Positions 31,652 to 43,717 of a stretch of DNA of 64,000 bases are shown here, piece by piece. A program made the position numbers and the translations under genes. Position 1 is the first letter of the stretch. The number at the start of each line of letters is the position of its first letter. This DNA comes from Escherichia phage ManiWeber_Bas99: sequence record PQ850618.1; one strand, written 5' to 3'. The notes under the pieces are model-generated. The model made no database searches. It was not told the DNA's origin and was given only the letters and a program-made list of their open reading frames with translations.

Positions 31652-32512
31652 TTAAAACTCTTCTGCGTCGGTCGGAGTTTCATTGACAGGACCAGCGGCA
31701 CCGCTTGCTTCTTCCTGCTTGCTGCGGTCAATGTTAACATTGCCGCCAACTACGTCGTTGTGGAATGCCTTGGCGACTTCGTACAGGCCTTTGTCCTGCA
31801 CCAGACCTTCCAGCTCAAACTTCAGAACAGACCAGGTGTTGCCGTCTTTGGACTGGGATGCAGTGCCCATGCGAACGATGTTCATAAAGGTCGGCGGCGT
31901 TTTCAGACCCTGCGGAGTCTGAACTTTCTTCTGCTGCAGAGCGGTCATCAGCATGCGAGACGGCTTGATCATGGAAGAAGTCAGAGACAGCATTGCGCTA
32001 CCAAATTCACCAGTTTCTTCGTTCAACAGAATTACGAAGTGGTTGCGTGTATCTGCGTAGTAAGGAGATTTCTTCTCGTGCACCTTGCCGTTTTCGTCCG
32101 GCACGAATACCTTACCGTTGATCTCAACAGCGCGGCCTGCTGCGACTTCTGCATCAACGTGCTCTTTGGTGAATTCACCTTTAAAGCCTTTATCGTCGGA
32201 CTCGCGACCGCCCCAAAGAATGAAGGTGCGTTTGAATGCGCAAGGGATGATCTGCACGCCTTTCTTGCCGTCATACAACTCACCAGTAACGGTGTTGTAA
32301 AGCATGCCAGCTTTTGCGCCAGGAACGTGTTTCGGATCATCTTCGTCGACCATAGGAGACATCTTCTGCAGTACGACGATAAAAGGAATGGCATACGCAT
32401 CGGCATCGGCACCTTCAAAACCAGCGCCAAAATCGGTCATGTCGACAAAATCAGCCATAGCGGACATCTGGGTGTTTTTCACTGCAACTTCGGTGGTTTC
32501 TTTCTTAGACAT
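31652..32512 (-). CDS. ssDNA-binding / annealing protein candidate
   Basis: 286 aa; Gly-rich, acidic C-terminal tail ending ...TDAEEF as in T7 gp2.5-type SSBs; in the replication module. Confidence 0.4.
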   Translation of the reverse strand: MSKKETTEVAVKNTQMSAMADFVDMTDFGAGFEGADADAYAIPFIVVLQKMSPMVDEDDPKHVPGAKAGMLYNTVTGELYDGKKGVQIIPCAFKRTFILWGGRESDDKGFKGEFTKEHVDAEVAAGRAVEINGKVFVPDENGKVHEKKSPYYADTRNHFVILLNEETGEFGSAMLSLTSSMIKPSRMLMTALQQKKVQTPQGLKTPPTFMNIVRMGTASQSKDGNTWSVLKFELEGLVQDKGLYEVAKAFHNDVVGGNVNIDRSKQEEASGAAGPVNETPTDAEEF

Positions 32513-32571
32513 TTGATATTTTCCTATAGTATCAAGTTTCGTGGCAACCTGATTTCAAGATAAAGGTTAAA

Positions 32572-33129
32572 TTACTTTTTGCTTTTAGGCAAGGTTATTT
32601 TAGCTTCTTTGTATTCAAAAACGCTAATATCTTCACTAACTGGATTGCCCGCTTCCAGCTGTTCTTTTACAAACGACTTCAGTGTAGCAGAATGAACGCC
32701 TTGTTTCAACGTGGCTTCAACACCATCTTCACGCAGCGCGGCAACAATCTCTTGCGCCTGTTCGATTTCTTCGCGACCGAACTCAGCCGTGACGCTGGAC
32801 TTGATCAAGCCGCCGTAACCGTTGTTGACAAGCCAATCGAAAACTTTTAATTCGTTTTCTTTCTTGATTGAAGCGTTCACCTTGGACTCGACCTTGATTT
32901 TGGTCTTGTCCTCAAGCTTGATTTCGGACACGCCAAGCTCATCCATAACGCCAGGAAGCAGAACAGTTTTGATTTCACTGATTCGCTGCTTTTGCATATC
33001 AGCTTCATCTTCAAGCTCTGTCAAAGCTTCTTGGCGTTCTGCCAGTTCAGATACTAAGCGCGCAAGGCGCTCTTGAATGCTCTCAGGAGCGACCTGCGGC
33101 AAATCATCTTCCCAATTAATATTGCTCAT
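32572..33129 (-). CDS. hypothetical coiled-coil protein
   Basis: 185 aa acidic ORF. Confidence 0.45.
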   Translation of the reverse strand: MSNINWEDDLPQVAPESIQERLARLVSELAERQEALTELEDEADMQKQRISEIKTVLLPGVMDELGVSEIKLEDKTKIKVESKVNASIKKENELKVFDWLVNNGYGGLIKSSVTAEFGREEIEQAQEIVAALREDGVEATLKQGVHSATLKSFVKEQLEAGNPVSEDISVFEYKEAKITLPKSKK

Positions 33130-38845: not shown

Positions 38846-38872
38846 CAAAAAGGCCGCCCATTAGGACGGCCA
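38846..38872 (-). terminator. rho-independent terminator
   Basis: Minus-strand hairpin GGCCGTCC-TAAT-GGGCGGCC (one G-U pair) followed by TTTTT. Confidence 0.45.
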
Positions 38873-38887
38873 CAGATTCACGATTTG

Positions 38888-39439
38888 TTATACAGTGTAC
38901 GGAGTACCGTCTTGATTCAACCGCACGATGAATTTAAGGTCGACACCGATGATTTCACGAGTATCAAAGATTACATAGTTGTAACGACGCTGACCAGCAA
39001 TGTTTGGGTTGGTGTGAGAGTCGGTCACAACTTCCTGCGCAACCTGAATGCCTTCTTCTTTAAAGAACTTGCGCCATTCAGCAAGTTCAGCGGCAGTCAC
39101 GTGCATACCAAGATGGCTAACCTGATTGTCGTGCGCATCGATGTATTCGATGTTTTCGTGAATCCAGTTGCAACCTTTTGTATAGTCAAGAATTTCAAGC
39201 TCAAGAGGCTTACCAGCGCCGCCATCGGTGCCGTTGCCAGCCTGATAGTTGAAGCGCAAGTCAGCTTCGTTGGTGCAATCGCCGCGCTGACCCTTAAAGA
39301 CATCAGCTTCAAATACGCGACCAGTAGCAACAACGTGATCATGGAACCATTCTGTCAGGCCGATTTTAGCCAGGAAATTCTGTGCGCGCTGAGCACCTGG
39401 AATTGACAGGGCGATTTGTTCAATTTTAAAATGTGGCAT
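38888..39439 (-). CDS. hypothetical protein
   Basis: 183 aa ORF with no confident motif. Confidence 0.45.
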   Translation of the reverse strand: MPHFKIEQIALSIPGAQRAQNFLAKIGLTEWFHDHVVATGRVFEADVFKGQRGDCTNEADLRFNYQAGNGTDGGAGKPLELEILDYTKGCNWIHENIEYIDAHDNQVSHLGMHVTAAELAEWRKFFKEEGIQVAQEVVTDSHTNPNIAGQRRYNYVIFDTREIIGVDLKFIVRLNQDGTPYTV

Positions 39440-39459
39440 TTTGTTTCCTTAATTAAATA

Positions 39460-39630
39460 TTATTGATTAATTACTGTGTTGCCTTCGATGGAATAAGTCT
39501 CAATGGAACCGACGCGCTCGTGGTTAATCTTTGCGTTTTCGATTCTTATTACTTCAAATCCAACACCTTCTTGATCAATCTTCACTTCTGCTACGTCGCC
39601 AATCACTTCTACAACAACTTTGATAGTCAT
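39460..39630 (-). CDS. small hypothetical protein (56 aa)
   Basis: Fills the gap between two minus-strand genes; weak RBS; not in the ORF track. Confidence 0.3.
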   Translation of the reverse strand: MTIKVVVEVIGDVAEVKIDQEGVGFEVIRIENAKINHERVGSIETYSIEGNTVINQ

Positions 39631-39633
39631 GAT

Positions 39634-40317
39634 TTATTTCCCAAATGGAATATCAGTACCAGACATAAAGCGCCATGCGCCCGTAATTAAGATATGGCGA
39701 ATGAAGTCAGCAATTACTTGCGGCTCAGTCTCCAATCCATTCATCAGCGCCTTTTTCTGGTATTCAGCAGCATACTCAGGAGTCCAGCCGCGAGTCGCGC
39801 AAACAGCATCTTCAATCTGTTTGGACATGCCAGTACCACGTAGCTTATTAGGACTAATAGAAAATACCGTGATCCCGTATTTAGGCGTAAGCTCGTGAGC
39901 CATCTGCTTGCTAATCATGAGCGCAGCAGCCTTGGAAGCATTATAACACAAGCTGGATGTCATAGGAATATGCGCAGCGTTGGAAACGATATTGATCACA
40001 AAACCTTTGTTGTCGATAAGACTTTTCAGCGCGGCTTGAGTCGTGTTGACGAAAGAGAAGGCGTTGGTGTGCATAACGCGATTGAACTCTTCGTAGTTAA
40101 CATCTTCAAACCAGTTGTTGGAGTTGACGCCAGCACAGTTGATCAAGCCTTCTACATCATATGGGCTTAAAATTTCTTTCATCTGTTTCGCGTCGCGGAC
40201 GTCATATCCGTATGCTGAATCGATTCCAAGCACGTTATGACCGTAAGCGCCAAGGGTGTCAAAAATAGATTTACCAAGACCGGAATTGGAACCTGTTACA
40301 ACAATTACTTTTTTCAT
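39634..40317 (-). CDS. short-chain dehydrogenase/reductase (SDR)
   Basis: 227 aa; VTGSNSGLGKS (TGxxxGxG NAD(P)-binding) and YNASK (catalytic YxxxK). Confidence 0.7.
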   Translation of the reverse strand: MKKVIVVTGSNSGLGKSIFDTLGAYGHNVLGIDSAYGYDVRDAKQMKEILSPYDVEGLINCAGVNSNNWFEDVNYEEFNRVMHTNAFSFVNTTQAALKSLIDNKGFVINIVSNAAHIPMTSSLCYNASKAAALMISKQMAHELTPKYGITVFSISPNKLRGTGMSKQIEDAVCATRGWTPEYAAEYQKKALMNGLETEPQVIADFIRHILITGAWRFMSGTDIPFGK

Positions 40318-40382
40318 TTATTTATCCTTTTTGGACTTCGTTTCAATGAGATAAATATAACTCATCGAAACGCACAAGTAAA

Positions 40383-41255
40383 CTATTTATTGAAATTAAT
40401 ATTGTGGGTGTTGACGAGACGTTCACACATGGCGCTGTAAACACCATCGTCGTGTATAGAGTCTTCGTGCTTCAGGCCGCTGATTGCAAAGCGTGTAAGC
40501 TTGACAATCTTAAGCTCGAACAGATGCCACATGTGGTAGTCTTCCGGCGTTTTCAACGTTACGCCATTAGGGAAAAGCACCTGCATAACCTGGCCAACCA
40601 TCACGGCATTATCGCCATAGACAGCGTTGCGCTCACGGAAGGTTGCTGCCATTGCATCAAGAATATCGGCGGCAGTTGCCGGAGATTGTTCAACTTCCAC
40701 AGCCTTAGTCTCTTCTTGCCCTGTTGCGCTTGGATCAATTGCTAATTGTTGCACCACTTCACCTGCCTTGCAAAGATTAAATGTAAAAGCGATTTTATTT
40801 TGAGCAACGGAATTATAATACAATGCTTCATCTTGCATCCGCGCGAGCACGTCTTGTCGGTCGTCGAATACATTGATGATTCGATAATCGCCGTGCCGCA
40901 ATGCGTGCGATAGCCATGCAGATTTCATAATAGTTGATGGACGTTTGTCGCCATAGTCTCTCATCTTGATTGTAAATTCATCAAAAGGAAAAACATTGTC
41001 CAGACGTTCAAAAGTCACTTGTCTGTATTTTTCTGGCCTTGCAGTCCAATATTCAACCGCCTCACCGCGAAGAGATGCCGACTCTACTGCTGATGCAATG
41101 TGAGGATAGAACTGATCATAACCAATACCGCTGTGATAGTCATCATAGTCTGACAACGGACCTGCCACCTTGATGCGGTCTAAGCGCCAACGGTCATCAA
41201 ACAGCGTTCCGTCAAGGTCGAATACGTTTAATATTTGGTTATTTTTAATACTCAT
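40383..41255 (-). CDS. HAD-superfamily phosphatase fused to a domain of unknown function
   Basis: 290 aa; N-terminal FDLDGTLFDD is the HAD DxDGT nucleophile motif; C-terminal half unassigned. Confidence 0.5.
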   Translation of the reverse strand: MSIKNNQILNVFDLDGTLFDDRWRLDRIKVAGPLSDYDDYHSGIGYDQFYPHIASAVESASLRGEAVEYWTARPEKYRQVTFERLDNVFPFDEFTIKMRDYGDKRPSTIMKSAWLSHALRHGDYRIINVFDDRQDVLARMQDEALYYNSVAQNKIAFTFNLCKAGEVVQQLAIDPSATGQEETKAVEVEQSPATAADILDAMAATFRERNAVYGDNAVMVGQVMQVLFPNGVTLKTPEDYHMWHLFELKIVKLTRFAISGLKHEDSIHDDGVYSAMCERLVNTHNINFNK

Positions 41256-42061
41256 CCCTTTGACACTCCATCTTTAGCAACTGGATTGTTTGTGATTGGC
41301 GCGGCATCCCAAAACTGGATGCGCAACTCTTCTTGCTGTGCCGTGGTATCCATCCAATCACGATACCACGGGCAATGGGCTTTGCCATGACGAGGAAACG
41401 CGCATTTACCCATACCGATGCATTGCGGCTGTAGTAAAGGATTAGCCCATGGGTGCACCTTGAGGACTTCCGCAACCATTGCGCGAAATACTTCTTGATA
41501 CTCACCTTGTGTGCGCGTGCACAAGCGGTTTGACGCCATCTGCTGCAGCGTGCGCAAGTTGAACTTTGCCATGATATGCGTTTGCATATTAGAAGGCAAC
41601 ACGGCACGTGCATCCTGAATCTCTGCGCCAGCCGCGCGAAGTTCTTGATACAAAGCATCGATAGTCGCCATTGCATCATCCCATTTCTCTGCCAATGAGT
41701 GATGTCTTATGTGCACATCATCAAATGCATTTTCATCATTGCAGTCAGAAGGGTGCTCGAATGCCTTCGGACGAATCGCATCAAATGCAGAAGATTCCTG
41801 AGCGCGGCTGGTGCGTTCTTGGTATGCACCTGTGCGTGTGCGTACCATCTGATGAGTCATATTCTTTGATACAGCGGTGATGTCAAAGATATAGTCCACA
41901 AAGTCAAAAGGCGACTTGATGGTGTCAAGCATGTAGCGCCAATGCTCTTGCTTCTCTGATTCCGTCATCTCAGAGACAGGCTTACCAGTCATGCGCGTGT
42001 TCTTTGTTTCCAGCAAAAGGTCAAGTGCATCTTGGGTGTATCGAATTAATTCAACTTTCAT
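41252..42061 (-). CDS. thyX: flavin-dependent thymidylate synthase-like (ThyX family, variant motif)
   Basis: 269 aa; HQMVRTRTGAYQERTSR aligns with the ThyX RHRx7-8S signature but has Thr in place of His. Confidence 0.6.
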   Translation of the reverse strand: MKVELIRYTQDALDLLLETKNTRMTGKPVSEMTESEKQEHWRYMLDTIKSPFDFVDYIFDITAVSKNMTHQMVRTRTGAYQERTSRAQESSAFDAIRPKAFEHPSDCNDENAFDDVHIRHHSLAEKWDDAMATIDALYQELRAAGAEIQDARAVLPSNMQTHIMAKFNLRTLQQMASNRLCTRTQGEYQEVFRAMVAEVLKVHPWANPLLQPQCIGMGKCAFPRHGKAHCPWYRDWMDTTAQQEELRIQFWDAAPITNNPVAKDGVSKG

Positions 42062-42074
42062 TTTAATTATCCTA

Positions 42075-42521
42075 TTAACGGTAATTTACTAGTTGCTGAT
42101 CACCAGAGAAGGTGCAATGATAAACGAATTGTGCGTTATAAAGCAACTGAAAACTTTTCTTTGGTTCATTATTAGAACTCATTGATGTAAAGATTTCTGC
42201 ACCAGAACGATTTTCACCAATCAGGTTGATAAAGCCGCCAGTTGAACGAGGCTGAACGAAAGTGAAACGTTGCATCCACGGAGTGCGGTTGGCACCTTTC
42301 CCTGTGAATCCTTGAATCTGAATATTCAGGCCTTCTTGCTCGTTCACACCGATGTAAGTGGTAATTGTTGCGCCAGTCGTTGCTGCGGTCTTGCCGTCCA
42401 TCGCTTCGCAATCGTAAACAGCGATTGAATCTGAAGTACGGACAGCGGCTTCAGTCGCTTCCATATACATGGTTCCGAGAATAGCAGTTGCGGCAAGCGC
42501 GATTCCAGTGATTCGTTTCAT
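42075..42521 (-). CDS. secreted protein of unknown function
   Basis: 148 aa with N-terminal signal peptide MKRITGIALAATAILGTMYMEA. Confidence 0.5.
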   Translation of the reverse strand: MKRITGIALAATAILGTMYMEATEAAVRTSDSIAVYDCEAMDGKTAATTGATITTYIGVNEQEGLNIQIQGFTGKGANRTPWMQRFTFVQPRSTGGFINLIGENRSGAEIFTSMSSNNEPKKSFQLLYNAQFVYHCTFSGDQQLVNYR

Positions 42522-42586
42522 TTTCGTTTCCTCTATGAGTTCTGCTTCAATGATTAAAGTATACGCCCATTGAAGCAGAAAGCAAA

Positions 42587-43582
42587 TTATTTATTAGCAA
42601 TATAAGCAAATTTTTGATAGTTATTTGCTTTGATGAGTTTTTCAACTTCAACAAGGTCATGAGCAACGTCATCAAGCAAAATGTTTCGCCAAGTAGCGAA
42701 TCGACCGACACTAAATACGTTCAAATCCATGGTCAGCTGTAGGAGTAGAGCGTGTCGCAAGTCTTTCGGAATGTCGACAATCTTGCCATACTTCTGGTCG
42801 ACCTTTTCAACTTCTTCGAGAGCGATGTCACTCCATGAGAGGCCAAAGGCCGTCAACACTTCGTCGACTTCTGCGCGCAGCTTGATGTCACGGTAACGAG
42901 TAATGCCGCCAGCGGCTTCAACTGCGGCTTCACTTACGCTAACCAAAGGAATTGTTTCAATGATCAGCGTGTCACCAGTGATTGATGCGCGGTAAGTTCT
43001 GACGGAGTAGTCAGGAAAGTAAATGGTTTGATACAGTTCACACTTGCGTTTAATCTTAAAGCGGTAAACACGAATGTTTGCCTTGTCGAATGAGAAATCA
43101 ATCTTTTGATCAATCCCAGCAAGCTTCATTATGACTGGCAGCGGCGATGTGTTGATGATTGGCGTCTCGCTATAGCCGCAAAGAGTATCAACAGGAGTAT
43201 TAAAGAATATGCGGTCACCCAGTTTGTCGACAAGCTGATCATAAAAGTCATCAGGCGCAATATAACGCGTTGCAGTTTTAAGCTTCATGATTGAACGGCT
43301 GCCAAACTGATTGGTGACCTTCATGGAATACATATTGGCAAGGTTGATTGGGCAATGGTCGTGGTAGTAGTTGCCGCGAAAATACACAGCCTTGTCAACT
43401 GTCACGGCTTTAAAAGGGATTCCGGTAATACGGCTTACTTCTTCGCTGCGAAAGCGTAGCAATGCCTTGTGCTGTGGCGCTCGCTCCCCTGCTTCGTACA
43501 CAATAGAGTTCGGGAAGTGACACGCGGTAATAAGTCCTGCCAAACCGCCGCCGATAATCATTACAGGTTGTTTCATGTTCAT
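42587..43582 (-). CDS. Rossmann-fold FAD/NAD(P)-binding protein
   Basis: 331 aa; N-terminal VMIIGGGLAGL dinucleotide-binding motif; substrate unknown. Confidence 0.5.
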   Translation of the reverse strand: MNMKQPVMIIGGGLAGLITACHFPNSIVYEAGERAPQHKALLRFRSEEVSRITGIPFKAVTVDKAVYFRGNYYHDHCPINLANMYSMKVTNQFGSRSIMKLKTATRYIAPDDFYDQLVDKLGDRIFFNTPVDTLCGYSETPIINTSPLPVIMKLAGIDQKIDFSFDKANIRVYRFKIKRKCELYQTIYFPDYSVRTYRASITGDTLIIETIPLVSVSEAAVEAAGGITRYRDIKLRAEVDEVLTAFGLSWSDIALEEVEKVDQKYGKIVDIPKDLRHALLLQLTMDLNVFSVGRFATWRNILLDDVAHDLVEVEKLIKANNYQKFAYIANK

Positions 43583-43717
43583 TTGTCCTTTGTGGGTGAT
43601 ATGAGAAGTATAATAGCTAAATTATTTTACAGCAACAAGTCATTTCTATTTAGTACAGACGAAAAAAAGACCCACAACAAGTGTGGGTCAATTACCGCTA
43701 TATAACCGTCCTACAGG

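Follow-up and report, generated by a model that had tools for sequence, protein, structure and literature searches.

Within a 64,000-nucleotide stretch of the genome of Escherichia phage ManiWeber_Bas99 (PQ850618.1; hereafter, the window), a block of seven open reading frames (ORFs), all on the minus strand, spans positions 38888 to 43582. In the direction of transcription, these encode a flavoprotein, a small protein with a signal peptide, a ThyX-like enzyme, a fusion of a HAD phosphatase with a DUF6378-related domain, an SDR, a 56-amino-acid (aa) protein and a putative VOC-fold protein (Table 1). A preliminary description of the window had delineated the same seven co-directional genes, and the ORF list matches its coordinates throughout; the motifs it named are also in place: the SDR carries TGSNSGLG and YNASK, the HAD domain FDLDGT, and the 148-aa protein a signal peptide; the 331-aa protein has GGGLAG. 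Most of these genes belong to a collinear module that recurs in diverse phages, and the best-supported reading, to which we give an about even chance, is that the block encodes a pathway of thymidine hypermodification with a variable tailoring cassette.

Two strong terminator-like hairpins enclose exactly these seven genes, so that the block looks like one transcription unit. The upstream hairpin sits between the gene for a protein rich in Lys, Ala and Glu and the flavoprotein gene, whereas the downstream one directly follows the VOC gene, ahead of an exonuclease gene; within the block, the ThyX-like gene and the HAD fusion gene overlap by 4 nucleotides. The Lys/Ala/Glu-rich protein gene and a Dda helicase gene are the upstream neighbors, and a DEDDh exonuclease followed by a DnaE-type polymerase, that is, the replication module, lies downstream. 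The window comes from a Wifcevirus, with ~95% identity to Bas98, FEC19 and WFH. In this region, identity reaches 93-97% with 28 Wifcevirus genomes (e.g., Bas98 HermannAdler, FEC19, WFC/WFH, ECML-117 and vB_Eco4M-7), in the records of which the genes of the block are annotated as hypothetical protein, thymidylate synthase, FabG-like reductase and 'polynucleotide kinase/phosphorylase'.

Table 1. Genes, domains and flanking elements of the block, followed by other regions of the window mentioned in the text (window coordinates)
Feature	Position	Strand	Remarks
FAD-type flavoprotein, 331 aa	42587-43582	-	
Signal-peptide ORF, 148 aa	42075-42521	-	
ThyX-like protein, 269 aa	41252-42061	-	
C-terminal extension of the ThyX-like protein	41252-41440	-	residues ~208-269
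HAD-DUF6378 fusion, 290 aa	40383-41255	-	
HAD phosphatase domain, PNKP type	~40806-41255	-	FDLDGT, TAR, K, DDR motifs
DUF6378-related four-helix domain	40383-40685	-	C-terminal; preceded by a variable acidic linker
SDR, 227 aa	39634-40317	-	
Small ORF, 56 aa	39460-39630	-	
Putative VOC-fold protein, 183 aa	38888-39439	-	
Terminator-like hairpin, GACCCACAC-TTGTT-GTGGGTC then T7	43669-43689	-	upstream block edge
Terminator-like hairpin, GGCCGTCC-TAAT-GGGCGGCC then T5	38852-38871	-	downstream block edge
Lys/Ala/Glu-rich protein, 281 aa	43718-44563	-	phrog_4765
Weakly MazG-like protein, 207 aa	30456-31079	-	beside ligase gene
Two ORFs with Pam3-type Pfam matches	31652-33129	-	

A conserved module with a variable slot

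The synteny sample comprised 80 IMG/VR loci with the flavoprotein gene, the ORFs of which were searched with the window proteins; 86 loci were examined in all, and the main counts refer to the 53 independent metagenomic loci with at least 4.5 kb of sequence downstream of the flavoprotein gene. The gene order is the same everywhere: flavoprotein, ThyX-like protein, DUF6378 protein with or without the HAD domain, SDR, VOC, exonuclease and DnaE. Among the 53 loci, the ThyX-like gene is found in all 53, the gene for the DUF6378 protein in 52, the exonuclease gene in 47, and those for the SDR and the VOC protein in 37 and 35, respectively. All 51 loci that span the distance from the flavoprotein to the exonuclease encode the DUF6378 protein, which is a small stand-alone protein in 16 and a longer or fused one in the other 35. 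As judged by gene content, the conserved core of the module is the flavoprotein, the ThyX-like protein and the DUF6378 domain; the HAD part of the fusion appears to be dispensable, whereas the DUF6378 part is conserved. In the same 51 loci, the SDR and VOC genes are both present in 31 and both missing in 18, with only 2 discordant cases, which suggests an optional tailoring cassette behaving as a pair.

The flavoprotein is encoded in 361 GenBank phage records, among them those of Pbunavirus and Wifcevirus as well as Serratia, Xanthomonas, Pantoea, Aeromonas, Rhizobium and Vibrio phages. By genus, the numbers of records with the flavoprotein and with a ThyX of the same clade are 292 and 292 for Pseudomonas, 26 and 26 for Escherichia, and 9 and 9 for Serratia. 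In Xanthomonas phage XcP1 and Serratia phage MyoSmar, the gene order is the same as in the window, including the SDR and VOC genes. In Pbunavirus 14-1, the flavoprotein gene is followed by five small ORFs, ThyX, another small ORF, the HAD fusion, the exonuclease and the polymerase. In a 40-kb Vibrio podophage, the flavoprotein comes directly before ThyX, the HAD fusion is next, and a sulfotransferase-like protein replaces the SDR and VOC.

Such replacement is common in the variable slots of the module. Besides a stand-alone HAD, these slots harbor a sulfotransferase-fold or sulfotransferase-like protein (L003:9226-9981), a pyrimidine-dimer glycosylase similar to T4 endoV (Pyr_excise; loci L038-L040, L055, L075 and L088), a class I methyltransferase (L048, L068, L078 and L087), MazG (L067, L078 and L080) and a deoxyribosyltransferase-like DUF4406 protein (L020 and L022). 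An exchangeable tailoring slot is a pattern typical of hypermodification clusters. By eye, a 278-aa ORF in L025, L045 and L046 resembles a glycosyltransferase; it has no Pfam match.

The two remaining genes of the block look, from their distribution, like lineage-specific insertions. The 148-aa protein starts with MKR, a 17-residue hydrophobic stretch and EATEA/A, which reads by eye as a Sec-type signal peptide, and neither this protein nor the 56-aa one has a match in Pfam, PHROG, NCBIfam or PADLOC. The 148-aa ORF occurs only in 28 Wifcevirus records, was seen in 4 of the 86 loci, and is represented by only 2 clusters among 1.84 billion representative proteins, one of them a distant relative. 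No relatives of the 56-aa ORF were detected outside Wifcevirus, and Bas98 has two different small ORFs in the same slot. Because it is a Wifcevirus-only orphan in a variable slot, the 148-aa protein is probably not part of the pathway. Thus, the idea of a single functional group, put forward in the preliminary description, holds for five of the seven genes, which make up the conserved collinear module, and fails for the 148-aa and 56-aa ORFs; the secreted protein that had been noted in the middle of the block retains its signal peptide and loses its place in the conserved module.

Several other genes in the window were noted in passing. The 281-aa Lys/Ala/Glu-rich protein encoded upstream of the flavoprotein combines a long, histone H1-like N-terminal part with a structured C-terminus; in 35 loci of the myovirus subgroup, a phrog_4765 protein is encoded directly upstream of the flavoprotein, and the XcP1 homologue is annotated as 'putative structural protein'. 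The weakly MazG-like 207-aa protein (E = 0.023) has counterparts in Bas98 and 14-1 that are annotated as MazG-like pyrophosphatases. The two ORFs in the third of these regions match two recently defined Pfam families, Pam3_Gp34 (4e-86) and DUF7307, or Pam3 gp33-like (3e-37).

The core proteins and the proposed tailoring pair

Three protein labels from the preliminary description proved sound: the Rossmann-fold FAD/NAD(P)-binding protein, by its GxGxxG motif and the FAD-type Rossmann fold of its structural model; the SDR, by its cofactor and catalytic motifs and an adh_short domain; and the ThyX-like protein, by a full-length Thy1 domain. The flavoprotein belongs to phrog_4828 (1.7e-148), a PHROG family without an assigned function, and matches no family in Pfam or NCBIfam. 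It has 1912 homologues, nearly all on phage-sized contigs, none of which contains a Pfam domain. The sequence carries IIGGGLAGL, beta-2 ends in an acidic residue, and the C-terminus bears an invariant motif, GRFATWRN-LLDD. The AlphaFold (AF2) model, built from 38 sequences (pLDDT 88, pTM 0.85), is a two-domain FAD-type Rossmann fold, for which the top Foldseek matches in PDB are UDP-galactopyranose mutases (UGM; E = 3.6e-10, TMq 0.64), with protoporphyrinogen oxidase (PPO), monoamine oxidases (MAO) and renalase close behind. When the family profile was aligned to E. coli Glf with hhalign, only the 20 columns of the GxGxxG stretch were matched, with a probability of 5%. A genuine UGM identity was rejected given the lack of a Pfam GLF match and of profile homology beyond the dinucleotide-binding motif; as modeled, this is a protein of the FAD-type UGM/amine oxidase fold that resembles UGM at the fold level only.

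The ThyX-like protein matches Pfam Thy1 (PF02511) at profile positions 2-191 of 191 (1.2e-29; 103.9 bits against a cut-off of 24.8) and falls below the cut-off of the NCBIfam thyX equivalog TIGR02170 (80.3 against 87.9); solved ThyX structures in PDB match it at only ~1e-4. We aligned 68 distinct sequences of the clade with fragments of the T. maritima and M. tuberculosis enzymes and use the T. maritima numbering. In T. maritima ThyX, Q75, R78, R80, R90, R147, R165 and R174 form the dUMP contacts and part of the FAD contacts, and His53 stacks against folate or NADPH above the flavin. These seven Gln and Arg residues are invariant across the 68 clade sequences. The window protein has the signature RTR-X7-T in place of RHR-X7-S, and the middle residue of RHR in the clade is Thr (53 sequences), Ser (12) or Asn (3), but never His. 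In 68 of 68 sequences, the position aligned to His53 is occupied by Ile and the His of the EH motif is replaced by Phe; the Tyr91 position holds Val, Ala or Ile, and the Ser88 position mostly Thr. Given that the dUMP-binding residues are invariant and the His and Tyr positions are replaced, the nucleotide pocket appears to be kept and the flavin/co-substrate side remodeled throughout the clade. Six phage or virus ThyX from outside the clade retain RHR (6/6), S-x-R-Y/F (6/6) and EH (5/6), and identity drops sharply, from at least 36% within the clade to at most 29% for all other phage ThyX.

The C-terminal extension of the ThyX-like protein contains a C-X5-C-AFPR-x-G...C motif, invariant where it occurs, the three cysteines of which could form a metal site. 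The motif is present in 30 of the 68 sequences, all from the myovirus subgroup, with 40 residues inserted in the Pbunavirus copies, and is absent from the podophage-type, Vibrio and Rhizobium members. A second ThyX-like group that lacks RHR was noticed in actinobacteriophages: gp65 of Mycobacterium phage PBI1 (L090:236-1336) and gp84 of Gordonia phage Ranch (L092:191-1246) have RQR instead of RHR and EA or ES instead of EH, with an SDR encoded ~4-5 kb upstream. No flavoprotein homologue was found there, and the combination of a noncanonical ThyX with an SDR may be an independent pairing.

The HAD fusion protein is a member of phrog_4889 (1.5e-122). Its HAD domain matches HAD_PNKP of Pfam (5.3e-8; score 33.5 bits, cut-off 27.6), and the alignment shows conservation of each of the four HAD motifs. 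The database name 'polynucleotide kinase' was rejected because the protein matches no kinase family in Pfam or NCBIfam and the sequence contains no Walker A motif. The acidic linker varies from ~30 to ~200 residues across phages, and F8 and 14-1 differ in it by an AAED repeat expansion. The fusion itself had been recognized correctly, and the C-terminal domain, then left without a name, can now be described as a DUF6378-related, universally conserved partner: 28 of 36 family members show a weak match to Pfam DUF6378, and AF2 models the domain as four helices (pLDDT 92). Apart from the fusions, the DUF6378-like domain occurs alone, as a protein of ~100 aa, in many ~40-kb contigs; at 60-72% identity where the flavoprotein has 40-50%, it is the most conserved protein of the module. 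The invariant residues are R19, Y23, N26, H54, K62, R65, H73, D75, S76, D79 and E88. Identity as a MazG-like all-alpha NTP pyrophosphohydrolase was rejected for want of a sequence or fold match to MazG-type proteins, and a loose likeness to HD phosphohydrolases (H54 and the H78-D79 spacing) was backed by no search.

The SDR matches adh_short of Pfam (2.6e-31; 109 bits against 26.6), and its closest PDB entries are generic FabG enzymes (~1e-12). Homologues with 60-70% identity are found in Erwinia, Serratia and Xanthomonas phages; Pbunavirus has none. The 183-aa protein, which the preliminary description had placed correctly and could not classify, travels with the SDR and is read here as a putative VOC protein (a glyoxalase, MMCE-type epimerase or dioxygenase fold). 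The window protein itself matches Glyoxalase_4 only weakly (E = 0.09; 13.5 bits against a cut-off of 27), and 13 of 25 sampled members of its family of 690 homologues match this domain, the best of them at 6.7e-6; a search of PDB sequences with the family profile gave no match. The invariant residues of the family, Q8, E80, E82, H109, H113, H142 and D167, would be consistent with a metal site of the VOC type.

Proposed thymidine hypermodification and the alternatives

Relatives of these phages carry a chemically characterized DNA modification. The DNA of Pbunavirus F8 resists restriction enzymes with TG in their sites, and in F8 and 14-1 about a quarter of T is replaced, in the TG context, by thymidine derivatives of 362 and 390 Da; the authors interpret the 362-Da species as a tetrose sugar-alcohol derivative and the 390-Da species as a cyclized aldopentose derivative (Yee et al., 2025 preprint, PMC12191111). 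Pbunavirus lacks the genes previously implicated in hypermodification, and no genes were assigned to the modification (PMC12191111); a search of the later literature found no assignment either. Both F8 and 14-1 carry the core module, with 97% identity between them in the flavoprotein, 94% in ThyX and 79% in the HAD fusion. As a determinant of adduct specificity, the HAD fusion is not decisive, its divergence between the two phages being mostly in the low-complexity linker. Among the ten larger hypothetical proteins of 14-1 that were scanned, there is no other recognizable small-molecule enzyme, and the Bas98 annotation offers no other candidate.

Wifcevirus phages of the BASEL collection, in turn, resist restriction, with the exception of EcoP1_I, and the authors name no cause (PMC11990801). 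Bas98 has 36 EcoRI and 82 EcoP1_I sites (S2 table of PMC11990801), and the window has 17 EcoRI sites, about as many as expected, so site avoidance was rejected as the cause of EcoRI resistance; EcoRV, with 3 sites, and EcoKI, with 4, may be avoided. In the literature searched, we found no published restriction-digest data on Wifcevirus DNA, and the dinucleotide statistics of the window reveal no TG anomaly. Other site counts in the window deviate from expectation in both directions: HindIII (AAGCTT) 59 against ~18, XbaI 1 against 18, EcoRV 3 against 18 and GATC 99 against 247, with NdeI (13) near expectation.

Taken together, the synteny of the core, the atypical active site of ThyX, the thymidine hypermodification of Pbunavirus and the restriction resistance of Wifcevirus make hypermodification the best-supported reading, in which we infer the link between genes and modification. 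Accordingly, the proposal of the preliminary description that the block might make a noncanonical nucleotide for DNA modification is partly supported, by evidence that is indirect. The product of the operon would be a thymidine-type nucleotide with a bulky sugar or polyol at C5 that becomes part of the virion DNA and keeps restriction enzymes from acting. The ThyX-like enzyme would bind dUMP (or dU) and carry out a flavin-dependent C5 alkylation through an exocyclic methylene; the hydride transfer that would end the reaction in a plain methyl would give way to, or precede, the capture of a group derived from a sugar. A ThyA-family hydroxymethylase is the starting point of every known thymidine hypermodification, and the chemistry of ThyX and MnmEG passes through an exocyclic methylene that is open to capture by a nucleophile (Lee et al., PMC8989533). 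The flavoprotein would supply or activate the second substrate, a sugar, or else supply reduced flavin; the DUF6378 helical domain would be an essential third subunit; and the fused PNKP-type HAD phosphatase would dephosphorylate an intermediate, either a sugar-phosphate or a nucleotide. The SDR and VOC could contribute an optional oxidoreduction and an epimerization or isomerization, altering the adduct in Wifcevirus and its relatives compared to Pbunavirus.

The chemistry can be envisaged in two versions. In the conservative one, a hydroxyl of the sugar or polyol, rather than a hydride, would complete the reaction at the C5 methylene, giving an ether-linked product. The masses agree: 5-hydroxymethyldeoxyuridine (5-hmdU; 258) plus tetritol (122) minus 18 is 362, and 258 plus pentose (150) minus 18 is 390. 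The ether route would use no reducing equivalents, which would fit the loss of the residue aligned to His53, provided that the folate/NADPH-stacking role of the latter holds. In the radical version, which is speculative and, in our estimate, improbable, the ThyX-like enzyme would dispense with methylenetetrahydrofolate: a sugar aldehyde or NDP-sugar would be activated as in UGM chemistry, possibly on the partner flavoprotein, and the sugar carbon, held as a flavin N5-iminium, would be attacked by C5 of dUMP. The products would be C-C-linked, either 5-(1-deoxyalditol-1-yl)-dU, if a hydride is transferred, or a cyclic C-glycoside, if the ring closes. The arithmetic for an open-chain pentose (228 - 1 + 135 = 362) and a cyclic hexose (228 - 1 + 163 = 390) fits as well as that for the ether. 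Should this version be true, thymidylate synthesis would be the one-carbon case of a general flavin-dependent 'aldose-to-C5' alkylation.

A number of observations weigh against a hypermodification pathway. The TG context implies a step that reads the sequence, probably on DNA, and neither version of the mechanism explains it; the module proteins include no recognizable DNA-binding or base-flipping domain, and the ThyX-like enzyme keeps the arginines that hold the 5'-phosphate of a mononucleotide. The likeness of the flavoprotein to UGM is limited to the fold, and sequence and structure searches with the DUF6378-like domain gave no informative neighbor. The connection to Pbunavirus is by exclusion, given that most genes there have no assigned function and any of these could encode the pathway; furthermore, the chemical demonstration of the modification comes from Pbunavirus, and the evidence for Wifcevirus consists of genes and phenotype. 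The adducts of F8 and 14-1 differ while the module enzymes of the two phages differ only modestly, and the SDR and VOC are not needed for sugar-alcohol chemistry because the F8 adduct forms without them. The phenotypes are also different: F8 DNA is cleaved by EcoRI, to which Wifcevirus is resistant in vivo, and the resistance of the latter could equally result from a protein that inhibits restriction.

The main rival explanation is that the ThyX-like enzyme makes dTMP for very fast replication, with the linked flavoprotein acting as a flavin reductase. In such a two-component thymidylate synthase, the dependence on the reductase would follow the loss of the usual His residues on the NADPH/folate side, and the HAD-DUF6378 fusion, SDR and VOC would be pool-balancing or auxiliary metabolic genes with no bearing on DNA modification. 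The full-length Thy1 domain with all dUMP-binding arginines conserved, the location of the block in the replication module beside the exonuclease and DnaE, and the lack of another annotated thymidylate synthase in Bas98 are all compatible with this explanation, which database annotators have adopted in naming the gene; the strict 1:1 coupling to the flavoprotein would suit a reductase partner equally well. However, hosts such as E. coli and Pseudomonas already have ThyA, and in structure the flavoprotein comes closest to UGM, amine oxidases and PPO rather than to known NAD(P)H:flavin reductases. Left over, too, are the universally linked and highly conserved DUF6378 domain, the exchangeable SDR-VOC cassette, and the slot in which other loci encode a sulfotransferase-like protein, a methyltransferase or a glycosylase, and neither the Pbunavirus adducts nor the Wifcevirus resistance would have candidate genes. 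We consider dTMP synthesis possible but not probable.

Alternatively, the module might produce a small molecule, for instance a modified nucleotide or a sugar derivative, that stays free rather than entering DNA and inhibits host defense or metabolism. Flavoenzymes, a phosphatase, an SDR and a VOC protein are generic secondary-metabolism chemistry, the mononucleotide-binding residues of the ThyX-like protein are kept, and searches of Pfam, PHROG and PADLOC detected no DNA-acting domain in the module. Nevertheless, the fixed position from the Dda helicase to the exonuclease and DnaE across very different phages, the lack of any PADLOC or anti-defense signature in the block proteins, and the presence in related phages of a thymidine-derived DNA modification that needs a pathway make this an unlikely explanation. 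That the block is a chance neighborhood of unrelated genes sharing a strand of a densely packed genome holds for the 148-aa and 56-aa ORFs insofar as these are lineage-specific insertions. As an account of the whole block, it is effectively refuted by the synteny statistics, with five genes collinear in at least 50 divergent loci at only 36-50% protein identity; the 4-nucleotide overlap and the hairpins around the block point in the same direction. We give this possibility almost no weight.

If the hypermodification reading is correct, the three-gene core with its exchangeable tailoring genes is the candidate answer to both the Pbunavirus pathway and the Wifcevirus resistance, and the two questions become directly approachable in E. 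coli phages that are amenable to genetics. Pbunavirus includes some of the phages most used in therapy against P. aeruginosa, and their hypermodification was found only in 2025. The combination of the flavoprotein, a ThyX of the R[TSN]R type and DUF6378 would then be a sequence marker by which hundreds of phages and thousands of metagenomic contigs could be recognized as probably modified, which matters for sequencing, cloning, phage engineering and the prediction of sensitivity to modification-dependent nucleases (END).

Comparison with known systems

The closest counterpart is the Pbunavirus module itself, in which homologues of the flavoprotein (~40% identical), of the ThyX-like protein (~49%) and of the HAD-DUF6378 fusion follow one another as they do in the window, beside the exonuclease and DnaE; Pbunavirus and Wifcevirus share a wider, PB1-like phage lineage. 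Unlike the block in the window, the Pbunavirus module contains no SDR, VOC, 148-aa or 56-aa ORFs, and its flavoprotein and ThyX genes are separated by five small ORFs. Canonical ThyX, such as those of T. maritima and M. tuberculosis, and the phage clade have in common a Thy1 domain of full length and the Arg and Gln residues that bind dUMP, whereas the phage clade lacks the RHR His, the EH His, His53 and Tyr91 and is obligately linked to a second flavoprotein. UGM (Glf) is a FAD enzyme that handles sugars via a flavin N5 adduct. Although UGMs are the best structural matches of the phage flavoprotein model, they are larger, with 367-510 aa compared to 331 aa.

MnmEG and TrmFO provide a chemical precedent: a flavin N5-iminium carries the carbon to C5 of uracil, a Rossmann FAD protein is involved, and glycine or taurine, instead of a hydride, completes the reaction (PMC8989533). 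These enzymes, however, act on tRNA and have no sequence or fold relation to the module, MnmG and TrmFO not being among the structural matches of the flavoprotein. The 5-hmdU route resembles the proposed pathway in the bulky substituent on the C5 methyl, the partial replacement of T, the protection from nucleases and the variable tailoring enzymes (PMC8989533). Of its enzymes, a ThyA-family dUMP hydroxymethyltransferase, 5-HMUDK kinase, aGPT-Pplase, and the pyridoxal phosphate (PLP) and radical S-adenosylmethionine (SAM) enzymes, none is among the Pfam and PHROG matches of the block or in the Bas98 annotation. The enzyme acting on C5 belongs to the ThyA family in that route and to the flavin-dependent ThyX family here. 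The block thus belongs to no known type of hypermodification pathway; if our reading is correct, it is a new, ThyX-based variant that would involve new flavoenzyme chemistry and would be the first DNA-hypermodification route built on the ThyX rather than the ThyA family.

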